A stretch of 64,000 nucleotides of DNA, taken from Candidatus Bathyarchaeia archaeon. GTDB taxonomy: Archaea; Thermoproteota; Bathyarchaeia; Bathyarchaeales; Bathycorpusculaceae. The stretch is taken from assembly GCA_038883795.1 (NCBI GenBank), contig JAVZLK010000005.1, forward strand, positions 1-64,000. The letters are read 5' to 3'. Shown one piece after another: positions 3,785-52,387 of this stretch. Under the pieces are notes generated by a model. It saw nothing but the letters and a program-made list of their open reading frames with translations. It ran no database searches and was not told where the DNA came from. The position numbers and the translations under genes are program-made. Numbering within the stretch: the stretch's first letter is position 1; each line of letters begins with the position of its first letter.

Positions 3785-3911
3785 AATGTCTCAACTCGCA
3801 TTTTGCTATTTATGAGCATAACACTTCCATTTAGGGTTTTCCCATTTTACACGCCTAAACAATTCTAATATAACTGTAGATGTTTAAAGAAATTTGGCTG
3901 AAGGGAAAAGC

Positions 3912-4646
3912 ATGAAAATTTGCGACGCCCACGTGCATTTGGGAAAGTCGGGACCTTGGCAACCATACATAAATCCGACAATCTACACGGATGAGCTTAT
4001 TCGGCTCTTTGACAAGTATAATGTTGAACGGGCAATAGTTTTTCCAAACCCAAATGTTGGCGATGAATATCCAAAAATGAACGAATACATAGCAAAATCC
4101 GTTAAGAGGTATCCAAAAAGGCTAATAGGGTTTGGACGAGTAGATCCAAGAAGGAAAGACGCCATAAAAGAGTTGACTGGCATAAAAAATGGCTTGGGCT
4201 TGACGGGGGTCAAGTTGCATCCGATGGTGGAATGTTTCAGACCAGACCATCCCTTCTTCAACAAATTTTTCAAGAAAACCAACGCCCTAAATCTCCCAAT
4301 ACTTTTCCATTCTGGAGACGGATTTTCCTCTCCAGGGCTTATCCTAAAAATTGCTAAGAAATATCCAAAACTTCTCATAATTCTTGCACATCTGCGAGAA
4401 GCATCGGTTAACGCCTTAAAAGAATGCGAAAATGTTTATGTTGAAACCTCTGGCACATTGCCAGACTTCATTGAACTTTCAGTTGACATAGACGAAAATC
4501 GAATATTGTTTGGCTCCGACATTCCCTATTACCGGTATCCAACCCAAATAGCAACAGTTGAGGCTGCAGAAATTTCGCAAAAAACTAAAAGAAAAATTTT
4601 CTATGAAAACTTCCAAAAATTGTTCAGCCAAAATAATGAAGGCTAA
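3912..4646 (+). CDS. Amidohydrolase_2 family metal-dependent hydrolase
   Basis: DAHVH, GVKLHP, ILFHSG, ILFGSD motifs; ATG at 3912 preferred over TTG at 3894. Confidence 0.88.
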   Translation: MKICDAHVHLGKSGPWQPYINPTIYTDELIRLFDKYNVERAIVFPNPNVGDEYPKMNEYIAKSVKRYPKRLIGFGRVDPRRKDAIKELTGIKNGLGLTGVKLHPMVECFRPDHPFFNKFFKKTNALNLPILFHSGDGFSSPGLILKIAKKYPKLLIILAHLREASVNALKECENVYVETSGTLPDFIELSVDIDENRILFGSDIPYYRYPTQIATVEAAEISQKTKRKIFYENFQKLFSQNNEG

Positions 4647-6054
4647 ACCACTTATGACTCTTAAATGTGTTAAATGCAAATCAAAATTTCCATATTCGCC
4701 ATTTCTAGGCAGATGCAACAATTGCGACGGAACCATCGAATATGATTTAGGTTTGCCAAAAAAGGGCAAAATCAAATTTTTTGGGCGCTTCAGTTTTTGG
4801 CGATATAAAATTCTACTTCCGCCAACTCGCCATCAAATCAGCTTAGGCGAGGGCGGAACACCTCTCCACAAAGCCTTAAGGCTTGCCAAAAGTTTGGGTT
4901 TGCAAGAATTATATTTGAAGGATGAAACCCGAAACCCCACAAACTCTTATAGAGACAGAGCTGCCGCGCTTTATGTATCAAATGCTGTCGACCTCAAGCA
5001 CGACACTTTAGTTTGTGCATCTAATGGAAATTTAGGCGCCTCTTTGGCTGCATATTGTGCTAAGGCTGGACTAAACTGCCACTTAATTGTACCAAAACTC
5101 GTGGACGTTGGAAAATTGGCGCAGATGCTAGTTTATGATGCCACAATAGAAGAGTTTGGGGAAATTTTGGACGACTCCATAGGTAAGGCTGAAACCTTGG
5201 CAAAGGAGATGAATTGGTATCAAGCTACAGCCGAATTAAATCCATTGGCAATTGAGGCTCAGAAAACAATTTCTTATGAGGTTTATGAGCAATTTGGCGT
5301 TCCAGACTACTTCATAGTGCCCATGGGAAGCGGTGGAACAATCTATTCCATCTGGAAAGGCTTCAAAGAACTCAAACAGCTCAAAATAGCAGATTCGCTG
5401 CCAAAAATGGTTGGTGTTCAACCAGAAGGAAGCTCGTCCATAGTCAAAACATTTTTAGAAGGACAAACAAAAATACTGAAAATCTCTAAACCATCCACCC
5501 ATGCCTTAGCCGTTTTAGTATCCCAACCGCTCCAGGGTGAGCTTGCCATAAAAGCCATAAAAGAATCAGAGGGCTTAGCCTTAACAGTTTCTGACCAAGA
5601 AATCTTCTCAGCAGAACTTCAAATAGCCAAACTTGAAGGAATGTTCGCAGAACCAGCAAGCTCAGCAACAGTCGCAGCCCTAAGAAAGCTTATTGAAACC
5701 GAAAAAATTGATAAAGGTAATAGTGTTGTCTGCTTAATCAGTGGAAGCGGACTCAAAGCTACAGATGTGCTCCACGCCTTAACCAAAAAGCAAAAAACAG
5801 CAAAAGTAGGCTTAGAACTAAGCACAAAAGAGAAGATATTACGGATTCTTAGCGAAAAAGATACTTATGGTTACGATTTATGGAAAAAACTCGCAAAAAC
5901 AATGACACGCGCCGCGATATACCAACACCTAAACGAACTTTCAGAGAAAGGTCTGATAATAAGCTATACAAAAAATGGGAAAAGATTCTTCAAAATAACG
6001 GAGCGCGGCAAAAAAGCTTTACAAGCGATGGATGATTTGAAACTTCTCTTTTAG
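4636..6054 (+). CDS. Threonine-synthase-fold (PLP fold type II) protein with Lys-to-Arg at the PLP site, fused to a C-terminal PadR-type wHTH
   Basis: N-terminal CxxC/CxxC ribbon, SLGEGGTPL, NPTNSYRDR (canonical SFKDR), ASNGN, VPMGSGG, ISGSGLK; C-terminal ~75 aa with YGY, IYQHL..L...GLI, ITERG. Confidence 0.88.
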   Translation: MKAKPLMTLKCVKCKSKFPYSPFLGRCNNCDGTIEYDLGLPKKGKIKFFGRFSFWRYKILLPPTRHQISLGEGGTPLHKALRLAKSLGLQELYLKDETRNPTNSYRDRAAALYVSNAVDLKHDTLVCASNGNLGASLAAYCAKAGLNCHLIVPKLVDVGKLAQMLVYDATIEEFGEILDDSIGKAETLAKEMNWYQATAELNPLAIEAQKTISYEVYEQFGVPDYFIVPMGSGGTIYSIWKGFKELKQLKIADSLPKMVGVQPEGSSSIVKTFLEGQTKILKISKPSTHALAVLVSQPLQGELAIKAIKESEGLALTVSDQEIFSAELQIAKLEGMFAEPASSATVAALRKLIETEKIDKGNSVVCLISGSGLKATDVLHALTKKQKTAKVGLELSTKEKILRILSEKDTYGYDLWKKLAKTMTRAAIYQHLNELSEKGLIISYTKNGKRFFKITERGKKALQAMDDLKLLF

Positions 6055-6056
6055 GT

Positions 6057-6071
6057 CGAAAAGCTAATATA
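6057..6071 (+). promoter_or_regulatory. Probable BRE + TATA box of the S component gene
   Basis: cgaaaag followed by ctaatata, about 45-50 bp upstream of the start codon. Confidence 0.55.
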
Positions 6072-6092
6072 GTATAGTTATAACTATACTAT
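6069..6092. promoter_or_regulatory. Perfect 24-bp palindrome, candidate operator
   Basis: ATAGTATAGTTA|TAACTATACTAT in the 60-bp gap between the wHTH gene and the transporter gene. Confidence 0.8.
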
Positions 6093-6114
6093 TTCTTCTC
6101 AACTTGCACGGTGT

Positions 6115-7029
6115 TTGTTGATGGAAAAGCAATTAACGGTAAAAGTATTTTCGGGCATAGGCGGATTTTTAGCAGCGGCAATTTCAATTCTAGAAGTTTT
6201 CACCATCTTATCTGATATGGGGTTTGTGATATTTGAGAAAATAAGTTTAACAGATTCCCAAAAAATATTCATCAGCCTTCTAATTTTCTTTGGCTTATTT
6301 AGCGCTATTCTCGAGTTGGCCAGTATTTATTTTATGCGCAAAGGACATACAAAGGCTAGCTCTATCTCAAGTTTTGCAGGAGCGATATCAGCATTACTTG
6401 GGCTTTTAACCCCAAGCATTTTTGGATTCGCTCAATCTAGCGTTTTTCTGGTCGGTATGATAGTTAGCATGATTTTTATGGGAACCAGTGCAGTAATCGC
6501 TTCAACTGTGCCGTCAAAAGCGATTAGGGGTCCACTTTTAACAAGTGTAGAAGTTGCTGTTGTAGCTTCATTTTCGGCTTTGTACGCTGTATCGATAGTT
6601 ATTACATTTCAAATATATCCGATTCCATCACCAACTGGAGGTTTCCTACATTTCGGAGATTTTGTTGTGTTTCTAGTCGCTTTACTTTTTGGGGTAAAAG
6701 TAGGAGGACTCGTTGGAGTTGTAGGCGCTGTCGTAGCAGATTTTTACCTTGCCTATCCTCGTTGGTATGTCTCAATCATTGCGCATGGACTGGAAGGTGT
6801 CATACCAGGATTTACAAAGAAGAAAAATTTTGTGTTACAATTGATTGCATGCATAATAGGCGGCTTTCTTATGGCTGCAACCTACTTCTTCGTAAACATA
6901 TTCATTAAGGGCTATCCTGTTGCTGTCATCTCTTTTGTTCAAGACCTTTTCCTTCAAGCTGGAGCCTCAATAGCCGTAGGATTACCCATAGTCAAGATTG
7001 TAGAAAGAATATTGCCGTGGTTCCGTTAA
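6115..7029 (+). CDS. ECF transporter S component (HmpT-like) with an extra N-terminal membrane domain
   Basis: C-terminal half has P.PTGGFLHFGD...ALLFG...G...ADFYLAYP.W....HGLEG; N-terminal ~135 aa has about four extra hydrophobic helices. Confidence 0.8.
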   Translation: MLMEKQLTVKVFSGIGGFLAAAISILEVFTILSDMGFVIFEKISLTDSQKIFISLLIFFGLFSAILELASIYFMRKGHTKASSISSFAGAISALLGLLTPSIFGFAQSSVFLVGMIVSMIFMGTSAVIASTVPSKAIRGPLLTSVEVAVVASFSALYAVSIVITFQIYPIPSPTGGFLHFGDFVVFLVALLFGVKVGGLVGVVGAVVADFYLAYPRWYVSIIAHGLEGVIPGFTKKKNFVLQLIACIIGGFLMAATYFFVNIFIKGYPVAVISFVQDLFLQAGASIAVGLPIVKIVERILPWFR

Positions 7030-50020: not shown

Positions 50021-52387
50021 ATGGAAAAGAAAATGCCAAGAATTGGAATTTTCGTCTGCGAATGCGGCGGAAACATAGGCGATGTCGTGGATATTAAGGC
50101 TGTTGTTGACGCAGTTAAAAACTGGGAAGGCGTAGTCACAGCAAAATACCACAAATATTTATGCAGCAAACCAGCCCAAGAAATGATACTCGAAGCCATA
50201 AAAAAAGAGAACCTTGACAGAGTTGTTGTCGCCAGCTGCACCCCAAGAATGCATTTAGCAACATTCCAGAACGTTCTGGAAAGGGCTGGCTTAAACCCCT
50301 ACATGCTCGAATTTGTAAACATAAGAGAGCAAGACTCATGGGTTCATGGAACCCATGGATTATCCACGGAAGCGACAAAGAAGGCTATAAGCCTAATAAG
50401 AGGCGGATATGAGCGAAGCTTAGAGCTTGAGCCTCTCCAGCCCATAAGCGAAAAAGGTTCAAGGGAAATTCTCATAATCGGCGGAGGAATAGCTGGCATA
50501 ACCGCTGCCCTCGAGCTTGGCTATTTAGGCTTTAAAGTGCACTTGGTGGAGAGAAAACCAAGCATAGGCGGCAACATGGCAAAATTAACAAAAGTTTTTC
50601 CAACATTAGATTGCGCCCAATGCATACTCACACCGAGAATGGCGGAAGTGGGAAGAAACCCAAACGTGAACTTGCTGACCTTTTCCGAAGTGCAAGAAGT
50701 CAGCGGAAGACCAGGCAATTATACAGTTAAAGTTTTCATGAAACCCCGCGGCGTAGATGTCGAAAAGTGCAGAAGCTGTGGAGTATGCGCAAAAGTTTGC
50801 CCTATCTCTGTTCCAGACGAATTTAATGAGGGCTTATCCCAGCGAAAAGCAGCTTACATAGAATTTCCACAAGCCGTCCCATCTGCTTACGCCATAGACT
50901 TTAATGCATGCACCAAATGCCGAAAATGCGAACAGCTTTGTCCAGCTAAAGCCATAAACATAGATGACCCGGGCAAAATTGTTGAATTAAATGTTGGAGC
51001 AATAATTTTGGCTACTGGATATGAGCTTTATGATGCACGTAATTTGGAAATTTATGGTTATGGTAATTATAAAGACGTTATAACAATGATGGATTTGGAA
51101 AGGCTTACTTCTGCTACTGGACCAACAGGCGGCTATGTTAAGCGTGCAGATGGAAGCGATGTGCGCAAAATGGCTATTGTTCTATGTGCTGGTTCAAGGG
51201 ACAAGAATTACATTCCCTATTGCAGTCGAATCTGCTGCATGTACTCATTAAAGCAAGCTTTTGTGCTTAAGAAAATGTTAGGAATAGACGTTACAGTTTA
51301 CTATATTGACATAAGGGCTACGGGAAAAGGCTACGAGGATTTGTACTGGCGAGACCAAGAAGCTGGTGTAATTTTTGTGAAGGGGAAAGTGGCTGAAATT
51401 TACAAGAACAATAATGGTAAGCTTGTTGTTTTGGCTGAGGACACATTAACTGGCGAGATGCGGGAAGACGAATATGACATGGTGGCCTTAGCCACGCCCA
51501 TGGTTCCGCCAAAAGGATTGAAGGAGTTGGCTGAAAAACTAAAAGTTCCATTAGGCGAGGATGGCTTTATTACAGAAAAGCATCCAAAACTTGACCCAGT
51601 GGATACGCTTGTTACTGGAATATTTGCCGGCGGCTGCGCCCTCAGCCCAAAAGATGTGCGTGACACGGTTTCTGACGGTTTAGGAGCTGCTGCTAAAGCA
51701 TCATTATTCCTTAAAAGCGATTATGTAACAACAAGCCCAGAAAAAGCCTTTGTAATTGCTGATTTATGCAATGGCTGCAAAGCCTGCGTTCCAATTTGCC
51801 CAGTAAACGCCATAAGCATGCAGGAAGACAAAGCGAAAATTGACCCATTCCAATGTATTGGTTGTGGCGCATGCATCCCAGTCTGTCCACAAGAGGCTAT
51901 TGATTTCAAGAATTCAACAAGTAGACAGATTATTGCTGAACTGCGAGGTGTTTTGGCTGATAAGGCAGCAGACGAAGTTAGGATTATAGCTTTTGTGGAT
52001 AAGAATGTGGGTTATACGGGCATGGACTTTTTAGGGCTTGACCGAGCAGTTTACCCAGAAAACGTGCGAATTGTGGCTGTTCCATCCACCGCAATCTTGG
52101 GTTTAAAGCACCTGCTAGCTGCGTTTGCTTTCGGCGCCGATGGCATTCTAGTCATCGAAGGAAGCGAAGAAATCGATGAAAAATTCACTAAAAAAAGAAT
52201 GATTGACATGACAAGAGAATTAGCCAAATATGGCGTTGAAAGCATGCGAGTACGTTACAGTTACGTGCCCCTACCAGTTTATAAAAAAGCGGCTGAACTC
52301 TTCAACATGTTCGCAGAGAGAATCAAAAAATTCGGTCCATTAACGGATGAAAAACGCAACACAATAAGACAGCAAATCAAAATCTAA
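50021..52387 (+). CDS. hdrA: HdrA with a C-terminal Cys-free MvhD-like domain
   Basis: FVCECG, GGGIAG, FPTLDCAQC, CAGSRD..CSRICC, four ferredoxin motifs, YPENVRIV. Confidence 0.93.
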   Translation: MEKKMPRIGIFVCECGGNIGDVVDIKAVVDAVKNWEGVVTAKYHKYLCSKPAQEMILEAIKKENLDRVVVASCTPRMHLATFQNVLERAGLNPYMLEFVNIREQDSWVHGTHGLSTEATKKAISLIRGGYERSLELEPLQPISEKGSREILIIGGGIAGITAALELGYLGFKVHLVERKPSIGGNMAKLTKVFPTLDCAQCILTPRMAEVGRNPNVNLLTFSEVQEVSGRPGNYTVKVFMKPRGVDVEKCRSCGVCAKVCPISVPDEFNEGLSQRKAAYIEFPQAVPSAYAIDFNACTKCRKCEQLCPAKAINIDDPGKIVELNVGAIILATGYELYDARNLEIYGYGNYKDVITMMDLERLTSATGPTGGYVKRADGSDVRKMAIVLCAGSRDKNYIPYCSRICCMYSLKQAFVLKKMLGIDVTVYYIDIRATGKGYEDLYWRDQEAGVIFVKGKVAEIYKNNNGKLVVLAEDTLTGEMREDEYDMVALATPMVPPKGLKELAEKLKVPLGEDGFITEKHPKLDPVDTLVTGIFAGGCALSPKDVRDTVSDGLGAAAKASLFLKSDYVTTSPEKAFVIADLCNGCKACVPICPVNAISMQEDKAKIDPFQCIGCGACIPVCPQEAIDFKNSTSRQIIAELRGVLADKAADEVRIIAFVDKNVGYTGMDFLGLDRAVYPENVRIVAVPSTAILGLKHLLAAFAFGADGILVIEGSEEIDEKFTKKRMIDMTRELAKYGVESMRVRYSYVPLPVYKKAAELFNMFAERIKKFGPLTDEKRNTIRQQIKI

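Follow-up and report, generated by a model that had tools for sequence, protein, structure and literature searches.

A conserved palindrome as the probable operator of a putative one-component vitamin B6 regulator in Bathyarchaeia

Which protein reads a perfect 24-bp palindrome laid over the promoter of a transporter gene, and in response to which signal? The question is raised by a locus at the beginning of contig JAVZLK010000005.1 of a Candidatus Bathyarchaeia archaeon (assembly GCA_038883795.1), of which we analyzed positions 1 to 64,000 of the forward strand, hereafter the window. The palindrome stands between a gene coding for a fusion of a threonine synthase (ThrC)-like domain, which belongs to the fold-type II enzymes dependent on pyridoxal 5′-phosphate (PLP), with a PadR-type winged helix, and a gene coding for the S component of an energy-coupling factor (ECF) transporter of the PdxU/HmpT family. 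In our view the palindrome is likely to serve as operator for a one-component vitamin B6 regulator, namely the fusion protein, which would repress a B6 uptake gene. The site shows a strict association with both the regulator gene and B6 genes, and the fusion protein has lost the catalytic lysine of the enzymes it resembles. We infer that the site is bound by the fusion protein in dimeric form, with a B6 vitamer as ligand, and that control is negative.

The palindrome and its place in the promoter

Direct reading of the window showed that ATAGTATAGTTATAACTATACTAT is identical to its own reverse complement. It has the internal structure (ATAGT)2-TATA-(ACTAT)2, cannot be extended since a T stands at both 6068 and 6093, and contains the half-sites TAGTATAG and CTATACTA at a centre-to-centre distance of 14 bp. 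It is the sole match to itself in the 64-kb window with up to three mismatches allowed (matches were found in 0 of 100 shuffles) and in the 2.18-Mb genome with up to four, a scan that returned no second good site. Among the nine perfect palindromes of the window with a half-length of at least 7 it is the longest, followed by the 18-bp TTCCAGAACGTTCTGGAA at 50264-50281. Genome-wide, only two perfect palindromes reach a half-length of at least 12, and ATAGTATAGTTATAACTATACTAT is the second longest in 2.18 Mb; the longest, the 28-bp TTTTGAACATTTTTAAAAATGTTCAAAA, lies outside the window on contig C1 (91225-91252). Block-shuffled genomes contained on average 0.23 palindromes of half-length at least 12 (at least one in 7 of 30 shuffles), which corresponds to about 0.007 per 64-kb window. 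A palindrome of this length is unlikely for a 64-kb window and not decisive for a whole genome, and is weak evidence when taken alone. What makes it more than a chance occurrence is its conservation in relatives.

Within an order-level set of 41 relatives, 23 have a full-length orthologue of the fusion protein (54-90% identity), and we fetched 20 of these loci. In 19 of them the stop codon of the fusion gene is followed by the palindrome and then by the S-component gene; in the twentieth (L008) the two genes are kept apart by an inserted reverse open reading frame (ORF), and the site, some 640 nt further downstream, immediately precedes the S-component start. A species-level scan with one genome per species gave 194 stretches encoding relatives of the regulator, and the best 80 of these 194, nearly all labelled as metagenome-assembled genomes of Bathyarchaeia or Bathyarchaeota (two carry a Thermoproteota label and one a bacterial label), were examined. 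The pattern TAGTATAG-N6-CTATACTA, with at most two mismatches per half, was found downstream of the fusion gene in 80 of 80 loci. The distance from the fusion stop codon to the site is 12-43 nt in 76 of them and 158-1225 nt in the remaining four; the site is upstream of the target start in three wide-gap loci (L067, L087 and L104), and no ORF was called in the fourth (L112). Where the fusion gene and the S-component gene lie apart or are unlinked, the site stays with the S-component gene, and hence belongs to the target promoter rather than to the 3′ end of the regulator gene.

Alignment of 93 distinct sequences assigned 0.7-2.3 bits to each of the 22 core positions and about 0.1 bit to the flanks, the G and C positions of the core being invariant (2.1-2.3 bits). 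Only 4 of the 48 distinct 22-mers, covering 20 of the 93 distinct loci, are perfect palindromes over the core, and perfect symmetry as such is hence not under selection. In 14 of the 80 loci (L095, L098, L100, L103, L117-L119, L123, L126, L127, L130 and L135-L137) a second operator-like site overlaps the first with an offset of 17 nt, or 20 nt in L130; TAGTATAGCTGCAACTATACTAAAGTCACAACTATACTA is an example. The second site uses the right half of the first within its own left half, an arrangement that suggests cooperative binding by two dimers. In two hot-spring sequencing runs (X1 and X2), contigs of related strains match the window only over the operator, at 6058-6091, with flanks unlike those of the window (the matches end at 6057/6058 and at 6091), so that the footprint is visible here as well.

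The core follows a promoter-like element. The element CGAAAAG, which resembles the consensus of the archaeal TFB-recognition element (BRE), is followed by the TATA-like box CTAATATA, and a T/A-rich box at positions −5 to −1 from the site is conserved across the 93 distinct loci (0.34-0.81 bits). BRE/TATA-like boxes also precede the site at the promoters of unlinked targets. In Archaea the transcription start usually lies about 25 nt downstream of the TATA centre, so that, from a centre at about 6067, transcription of the S-component gene would be expected to begin at the positions given in Table 1 and the site would cover roughly −25 to −2. The stretch from TATA box to start is a classical position for archaeal repressors, where bound factors block the recruitment of transcription factor B (TFB) and RNA polymerase. 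A scan for bacterial-type promoters and terminators, the scope of which excludes archaeal promoters, scored nothing. The initial annotation had described a spacer-less perfect palindrome overlapping the end of a BRE/TATA-like element, and both parts of this description hold: the palindrome and the two boxes are found as claimed, in a geometry that is also the family consensus.

Table 1. Features of the locus, in window coordinates
Feature	Position	Strand	Remarks
Putative regulator gene, 466 aa plus stop	4654..6054	+	Cys4 zinc ribbon, ThrC-like fold-type II PLP domain, C-terminal PadR-type winged helix
Zinc-ribbon cysteines C5, C8, C21 and C24	4666..4725	+	invariant in 20/20 orthologues
Arg100, codon AGA	4951..4953	+	position of the ThrC Schiff-base lysine: NPTNSYRDR vs NPTGSFKDR
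Gly-rich loop GSGGT	5326..5340	+	aligns to ThrC GNAGN; G225 and G227 invariant, S226, G228 and T229 nearly so
PadR-type winged helix-turn-helix, residues 395-457	5836..6024	+	PF03551 match and AlphaFold2 model
Putative recognition helix MTRAAIYQHLNEL	5902-5940	+	nearly invariant in orthologues
BRE-like element CGAAAAG	6057..6063	+	A-rich positions −12 to −8 from the site, 0.22-0.35 bits, 93 distinct loci
TATA-like box CTAATATA	6064..6071	+	last three bases are the first three of the palindrome
24-bp palindrome ATAGTATAGTTATAACTATACTAT	6069..6092	.	perfect inverted repeat, arms 12+12, no spacer
Candidate operator core TAGTATAG-TTATAA-CTATACTA, 22 nt	6070-6091		inside the 24-bp palindrome
Expected transcription start of the S-component gene	6093..6096	+	inferred only, from the usual archaeal spacing
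Shine-Dalgarno-like GGTG	6110..6113	+	7 nt ahead of ATG 6121; read from the sequence
S-component gene, PdxU/HmpT family, 302 aa	6121..7029	+	PF07155 1.1e-19, 71.5 bits vs cut-off 26.7

The fusion protein and the S component

Alignment of orthologues places the start of the regulator at ATG 4654 (MTLKCVKC), the mechanical call beginning at TTG 4558 to give an ORF of 498 aa. Pfam assigns this ORF to PF00291 (5.3e-76) and, over residues 427-489, to PF03551 (1e-9, 38.7 bits vs cut-off 27). The closest solved relatives of the protein are threonine synthases (2.8e-59), and its active-site positions were read from alignments to 6CGQ and 2D1F. The zinc-ribbon cysteines are shared with two further ThrC paralogues of this genome, both of which keep the Schiff-base lysine and have no winged helix-turn-helix. 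The fusion protein itself has an arginine at that position in 20 of 20 orthologues, and the lysine is also replaced in 18 of 18 distant fusions of the phylum (R in seven, L in six, I in two, M in two and V in one). The GSGGT loop presumably occupies the place of the loop that holds the PLP phosphate in ThrC, and the Asn of the GN loop is retained in the regulator family. In the alignment to 6CGQ, the ThrC motif NPYRLEGQKT reads NPLAIEAQKT in the regulator, its arginine being lost.

Public databases call this protein a threonine synthase, a name borne by every named record among the best 120 matches, because it exceeds the cut-off of the TIGR00260 thrC profile (206.2 bits vs 167.1); its score with a second thrC profile, NF004170, is below cut-off (391.4 vs 421). 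The label looks like a systematic annotation error across Bathyarchaeia.

The winged helix-turn-helix occupies the last 75 of the 466 residues and is therefore not N-terminal. An AlphaFold2 model has helices at 391-401, 406-413 and 419-431, wing strands at 435-440 and 443-448 and a last helix at 450-465; the mean predicted local distance difference test score is 67.5, and the winged-helix blocks score from 60 to 89, mostly at least 76. The [IVLM]YQHL helix is retained in 18 of 18 distant fusions. Ligand binding and dimerisation are both probably functions of the enzyme-like domain, which has about 390 aa.

The PF07155 domain of the S component spans approximately residues 143-295 of 302 and follows a hydrophobic N-terminal membrane extension of about 140 aa (window 6121-6540), a trait of the S component in this genus. 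Operator-linked S components fall into size classes of about 167-205, 234-261 and 302-306 aa; members of the last class recur in L059, L060, L068 and L076 and in the unlinked gene of G016:C32. The sole sequence match in the PDB is 4HZU chain S (4e-9), which the short-form orthologue of L078 matches at 2e-16, ahead of RibU at 0.0028. According to PMC4860826, this chain is HmpT/PdxU2 of Lactobacillus brevis and its bound substrate was identified as pyridoxamine; PdxU and PdxU2 are described as PF07155 proteins in PMC9997740. The HmpT/PdxU2 pocket residues W76, H84, Y120, S136 and Q143 are identical in the window protein, and E41, Q87 and N140 are changed conservatively. Acidic, aromatic, basic, Glu, Tyr and Gln pocket positions are retained in 73-75 of the 75 operator-linked S components, the position of the pocket His being Lys in 69 of the 75. 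An EcfT energising component is encoded elsewhere in the genome (PF02361, 120.7 bits, G000:C6:48810-49418). The resemblance to HmpT/PdxU2 suggests that the S component is an importer of B6 vitamers.

Feedback offers the most economical logic for this arrangement. A dimer of the regulator would contact the half-sites TAGTATAG and CTATACTA, and the bound protein, between the TATA-like box and the start, would exclude TFB and RNA polymerase, and perhaps the TATA-binding protein, resulting in repression; we read the regulator as a repressor because archaeal factors in this position prevent TFB and RNA polymerase from being recruited. The pocket ligand, PLP or a different B6 vitamer in phosphorylated form, would be held non-covalently in the pocket and promote DNA binding, thereby turning B6 uptake off, since feedback logic implies that the B6-loaded form is the one that binds DNA. 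Replacement of the lysine would make PLP binding reversible, as a sensor needs. In relatives that possess pdxST, the same feedback would switch off B6 synthesis too.

Signal, binding protein and nature of the site

The first ORF past the site, which could be called in 76 of the 80 loci, codes for a PF07155 S component in 74 and for PdxS (PF01680, 342-343 bits) in two; in both of the latter pdxT follows pdxS, the site being flanked by the fusion gene on one side and by pdxS-pdxT on the other. The 41 order relatives were scanned with the pattern at N6 spacing, the reversed pattern serving as a control, and 41 matches in 28 genomes were obtained, compared to 17 matches in 13 genomes for the control. 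With an N4 spacer between GTT and AAC the pattern returned background only (4 of 41 genomes, compared to 7 for the reversed control). Matches that carry the GTT..AAC inner bases form three groups, located beside the fusion gene, before unlinked S-component genes (G016:C32, G038:C66 and G035:C56) and before pdxS (G008:C45), with one to three copies of the site per genome, always at B6-type genes. A pdxS gene scored over the cut-off in only 2 of the 41 relatives, G008 and G009, and in both of them the site TATT[AC]AAGTTAGAACTTTACTA stands behind GAAAG-TTTTTATA, about 17 nt before the pdxS start.

These observations bear on what the initial annotation had proposed. Its reading of the palindrome as the operator of the upstream PLP-fold/PadR fusion protein gains support from conservation, co-occurrence with the regulator and promoter geometry. 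Absence of the motif upstream of orthologous S-component genes was to count against it, and all 20 loci of the relatives and all 80 Bathyarchaeia loci carry the site, which also precedes three unlinked S-component genes. Hits upstream of pdxS/pdxT were to count in its favour, and they occur in G008 and G009, the sole pdxS carriers among the 41 relatives, as well as before pdxS-pdxT in 2 of the 76 loci. As a seed for regulon discovery the motif led to pdxS and to unlinked S-component genes in relatives, but to no second good site in this genome, the regulon of which consequently consists of one S-component gene; a match with one mismatch at C29:2603 lacks the GTT..AAC inner bases and is probably background.

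Vitamin B6 is the preferred signal because the regulon includes pdxST, the S component matches HmpT/PdxU2, the sensor derives from a PLP enzyme and most relatives are without a PLP synthase. Several points weigh against the operator reading as a whole. The relatives compared are not independent of each other, and the pdxS sites of G008 and G009 share flanking sequence and so represent one event. The control pattern has a background of 17 matches in 13 of the 41 genomes. No site was found ahead of the regulator gene itself in L001-L020. The AlphaFold2 model is only of moderate quality and gives no view of a dimer. A start at 6093-6096, and hence the position of the site upstream of the start, is deduced from the usual spacing. 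A pocket with arginine in place of lysine could hold another ligand. Finally, a search for pyridoxal kinase gave no clear match in this genome, which is 87% complete (PF08543, 26.6 bits vs cut-off 27), and B6 salvage after uptake is therefore incomplete as annotated.

Some of these points lend themselves to the most serious alternative, which we nevertheless regard as improbable: the palindrome would be the operator of the fusion protein, but the signal would not be B6 (an amino acid, O-phosphohomoserine or hydroxymethylpyrimidine instead, or an unliganded form binding DNA), or the protein would activate. The B6 ligand of the fusion protein is indeed a prediction, the normal ligand of the ThrC fold is O-phosphohomoserine, and a clear pyridoxal kinase is missing from this genome. 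In addition, HmpT was first assigned to hydroxymethylpyrimidine, as mentioned in PMC4860826. On the contrary, pdxS-pdxT stand under the same site in four genomes, unlinked to the fusion gene in two and beside it in two, and the absence of pdxS over cut-off from 39 of the 41 relatives fits a need for B6 uptake. Loss of the arginine from the NPYRLEGQKT motif, which in ThrC would bind the substrate phosphate, may also speak against this alternative. So does the place of the site between TATA box and expected start, which is classical for archaeal repressors.

Distinctly less probable is that a different transcription factor uses the palindrome while the ThrC-PadR protein has its targets elsewhere. 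DNA binding by the fusion protein is a prediction, and the genome encodes other PadR-like winged helices, with weak C-terminal matches. However, the site and the regulator occur together: a good site was found in 23 of the 23 order relatives with a regulator orthologue, whereas the 18 relatives without one gave seven pattern matches that all lack the GTT..AAC inner bases, and the six loci obtained for these matches contain no S-component gene. Likewise, the N6 motif was found in none of 14 S-component homologues from genomes without an R-type fusion, five of which are close orthologues (48-66% identity; 0 of 5 with an N6 site). In G010:C52 (L157) and G007:C26 (L163) the orthologue of the amidohydrolase gene that borders the regulator in the window is directly followed by the S-component gene with a gap of about 30-60 nt, regulator and site being both absent between the same flanking genes; G005:C96 (L162) apparently has the same order and lacks both, its amidohydrolase gene being cut by the contig end. 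Judged from their gene order, G010 and G007 are a natural case of presence or absence of the putative regulator-operator cassette as a unit. The recognition helix and the site are both nearly invariant, and no other regulator gene is conserved near the site among the 80 loci.

One of the five close orthologues, at G018:C6 (L160) in a genome devoid of an R-type regulator, retains an N5-spaced relic, TAGTATAGTCAATCTAGACTA, ahead of its S-component gene. This may be an operator in decay, or else a site read by an I-type paralogue of the regulator 11 kb away. The upstream amidohydrolase gene (window orthologue at 3894-4646) was considered as a possible part of the system and rejected, as it is conserved in only 7 of the 80 loci.

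We give even less credence to the possibility that the palindrome acts as a nucleic-acid hairpin, either as a terminator or processing site of the regulator transcript or as a structure in the leader of the S-component mRNA. It begins 15 nt past the regulator stop codon and is followed by TTTCTTCT, and its RNA fold has a predicted energy of −11 kcal/mol with a z-score of −4.2, as any perfect palindrome gives. Its arms contain only two G-C pairs each, the terminator scan scored nothing here, and from the conserved promoter-like box it should precede the expected start rather than lie in a leader. The site also goes with the target gene wherever that gene lies apart from the fusion gene or is not linked to it. 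Moreover, most variants break pairs: variation is largely one-sided, with 13 non-complementary types compared to one compensated for pair 4/17 and 10 compared to two for pair 5/16. The bases themselves are thus conserved, and not only their pairing, which argues for a protein-binding site. As for a chance palindrome in an AT-rich spacer, or a merely symmetrical core promoter, the frequencies in shuffled genomes and the TATA-like centre TTATAA speak for it, but conservation in 100 loci with unconserved flanks, invariant G/C positions and one to three copies per genome at B6-type genes leave it, in our view, already refuted and with next to no probability.

Breadth of the family and related systems

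A sample of 301 genomes of the phylum was examined and 18 distant fusions were fetched. Full-length fusions also occur in this sample outside the class, with 36-51% identity. In one of them (L150, 36% identity), the fusion gene is followed by the tandem palindromes TATAAAG-N6-CTTTATA, a PF07155 gene and a gene for an ATP-binding cassette ATPase; in L139-L144, no similar palindrome or S-component gene was found near the distant fusion. No pdxS was found in five distant genomes with R-type fusions. We hold it more probable than not, with less confidence than for the reading of the palindrome itself, that the site is one operator of a large and as yet undescribed archaeal family of B6 regulators in which the ThrC fold serves as a reversible PLP sensor (Lys replaced by R, L, I, M or V) and the PadR winged helix occupies the stretch from TATA box to start in promoters of B6 uptake genes and pdxST.

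Paralogous ThrC-winged helix fusions with Lys replaced by L, I, M or V have about 37-39% tblastn identity to the window protein (L155 at G018:C6:29022-30512, L145 at G025:C66:28229-29689, L146-L149, L151-L154 and L156). Perfect or near-perfect palindromes precede two of them, TATTTAAGATAAAGCTTAAATA at L154:636 and another at L151:1968.

The closest parallels are found among bacterial and archaeal vitamin regulators. In Bacteria, vitamin B6 is under the control of PdxR, a regulator of MocR type. According to PMC5320631, PdxR/MocR regulators combine an N-terminal GntR-type winged helix-turn-helix with a fold-type I aminotransferase-like domain in which the PLP lysine is kept, and MocR regulators are stated there not to be present in Archaea. 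The two systems have in common a sensor derived from a PLP enzyme and joined to a winged helix, a regulon made up of pdxST and a PF07155-type pdxU, and operators of repeated boxes. In the protein described here, by contrast, the winged helix is C-terminal and of PadR type, the sensor is a fold-type II ThrC domain, and the lysine is replaced; the Pfam search found no GntR or aminotransferase match in it. The regulator would then work like PdxR while not being a member of the MocR family.

The closest archaeal counterpart is RbkR, the archaeal riboflavin kinase/regulator, which, as described in PMC5397151, is likewise a one-component vitamin regulator composed of an enzyme domain and a winged helix-turn-helix. 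Its operators are given there as palindromes of 16-20 bp, sometimes two adjacent, before vitamin synthesis genes and the gene of the ECF S component RibU. RbkR differs in that its enzyme activity is kept, its ligands are flavin-related and its fold is another, and its sites lie upstream of promoter elements, for which the authors suggest activation (same source). At the locus studied here, the enzyme fold is disabled for catalysis, and the site is between the TATA-like box and the expected start.

Typical PadR proteins are small, with an N-terminal winged helix-turn-helix and a helical dimerisation domain. The fusion protein passes the PadR profile (PF03551), shares the arrangement of three helices, a two-strand wing and a C-terminal helix, and has an AT-rich inverted repeat as its likely target; it departs from PadR repressors in that the winged helix follows an enzyme-like domain of about 390 aa. 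It has the ThrC fold (TIGR00260) and the same N-terminal zinc ribbon as the ThrC paralogues of the genome, but lacks the Schiff-base lysine and the arginine of NPYRLEGQKT and has gained a DNA-binding domain. The S component shares PF07155 and much of the pocket with HmpT/PdxU2 (4HZU chain S), the window protein being of low identity (E = 4e-9) and extended by a membrane segment of about 140 aa at its N terminus. A full-text literature search, from which subscription journals were mostly absent, turned up neither a ThrC-fold/PadR regulator nor a B6 regulator of any kind from Archaea, where this type of regulator would so far be undescribed.

What the locus offers is a candidate for the regulator, an operator whose limits are sharply drawn, and a regulon that is both small and coherent, with a PdxU/HmpT-type importer and pdxST. 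If this interpretation is correct, the fusion protein would be the first transcription factor in Archaea to respond to B6 and also the first with a fold-type II PLP domain as its scaffold, and its Lys-to-Arg pocket would be a natural case of an enzyme turned into a cofactor sensor. The widespread annotation as threonine synthase would be wrong. The regulator together with TAGTATAG-N6-CTATACTA would then give a sequence rule by which B6 transporters, and likewise B6 auxotrophy, could be recognised in Thermoproteota not yet in culture, and would allow a substrate to be assigned to a family of S components that is hard to annotate. B6 dependence would become predictable in an abundant and almost uncultured lineage, which would be useful for cultivation.

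Palindromes were also noticed at other loci. At G009:C54:1876-1897 (L055), a small ORF for a membrane protein has the palindrome TATTAAAGATATATCTTTACTA at its start, with outer arms similar to those of the site and a different inner part; the ORF beside this one looks QueC-like by eye. Outside the window, contig C39 of the genome carries two perfect 20-bp palindromes that are alike, ATCCTTTACCGGTAAAGGAT at 5130-5149 and AATCTTTACCGGTAAAGATT at 5789-5808, 660 nt apart, and this pair may represent operators of another regulator.

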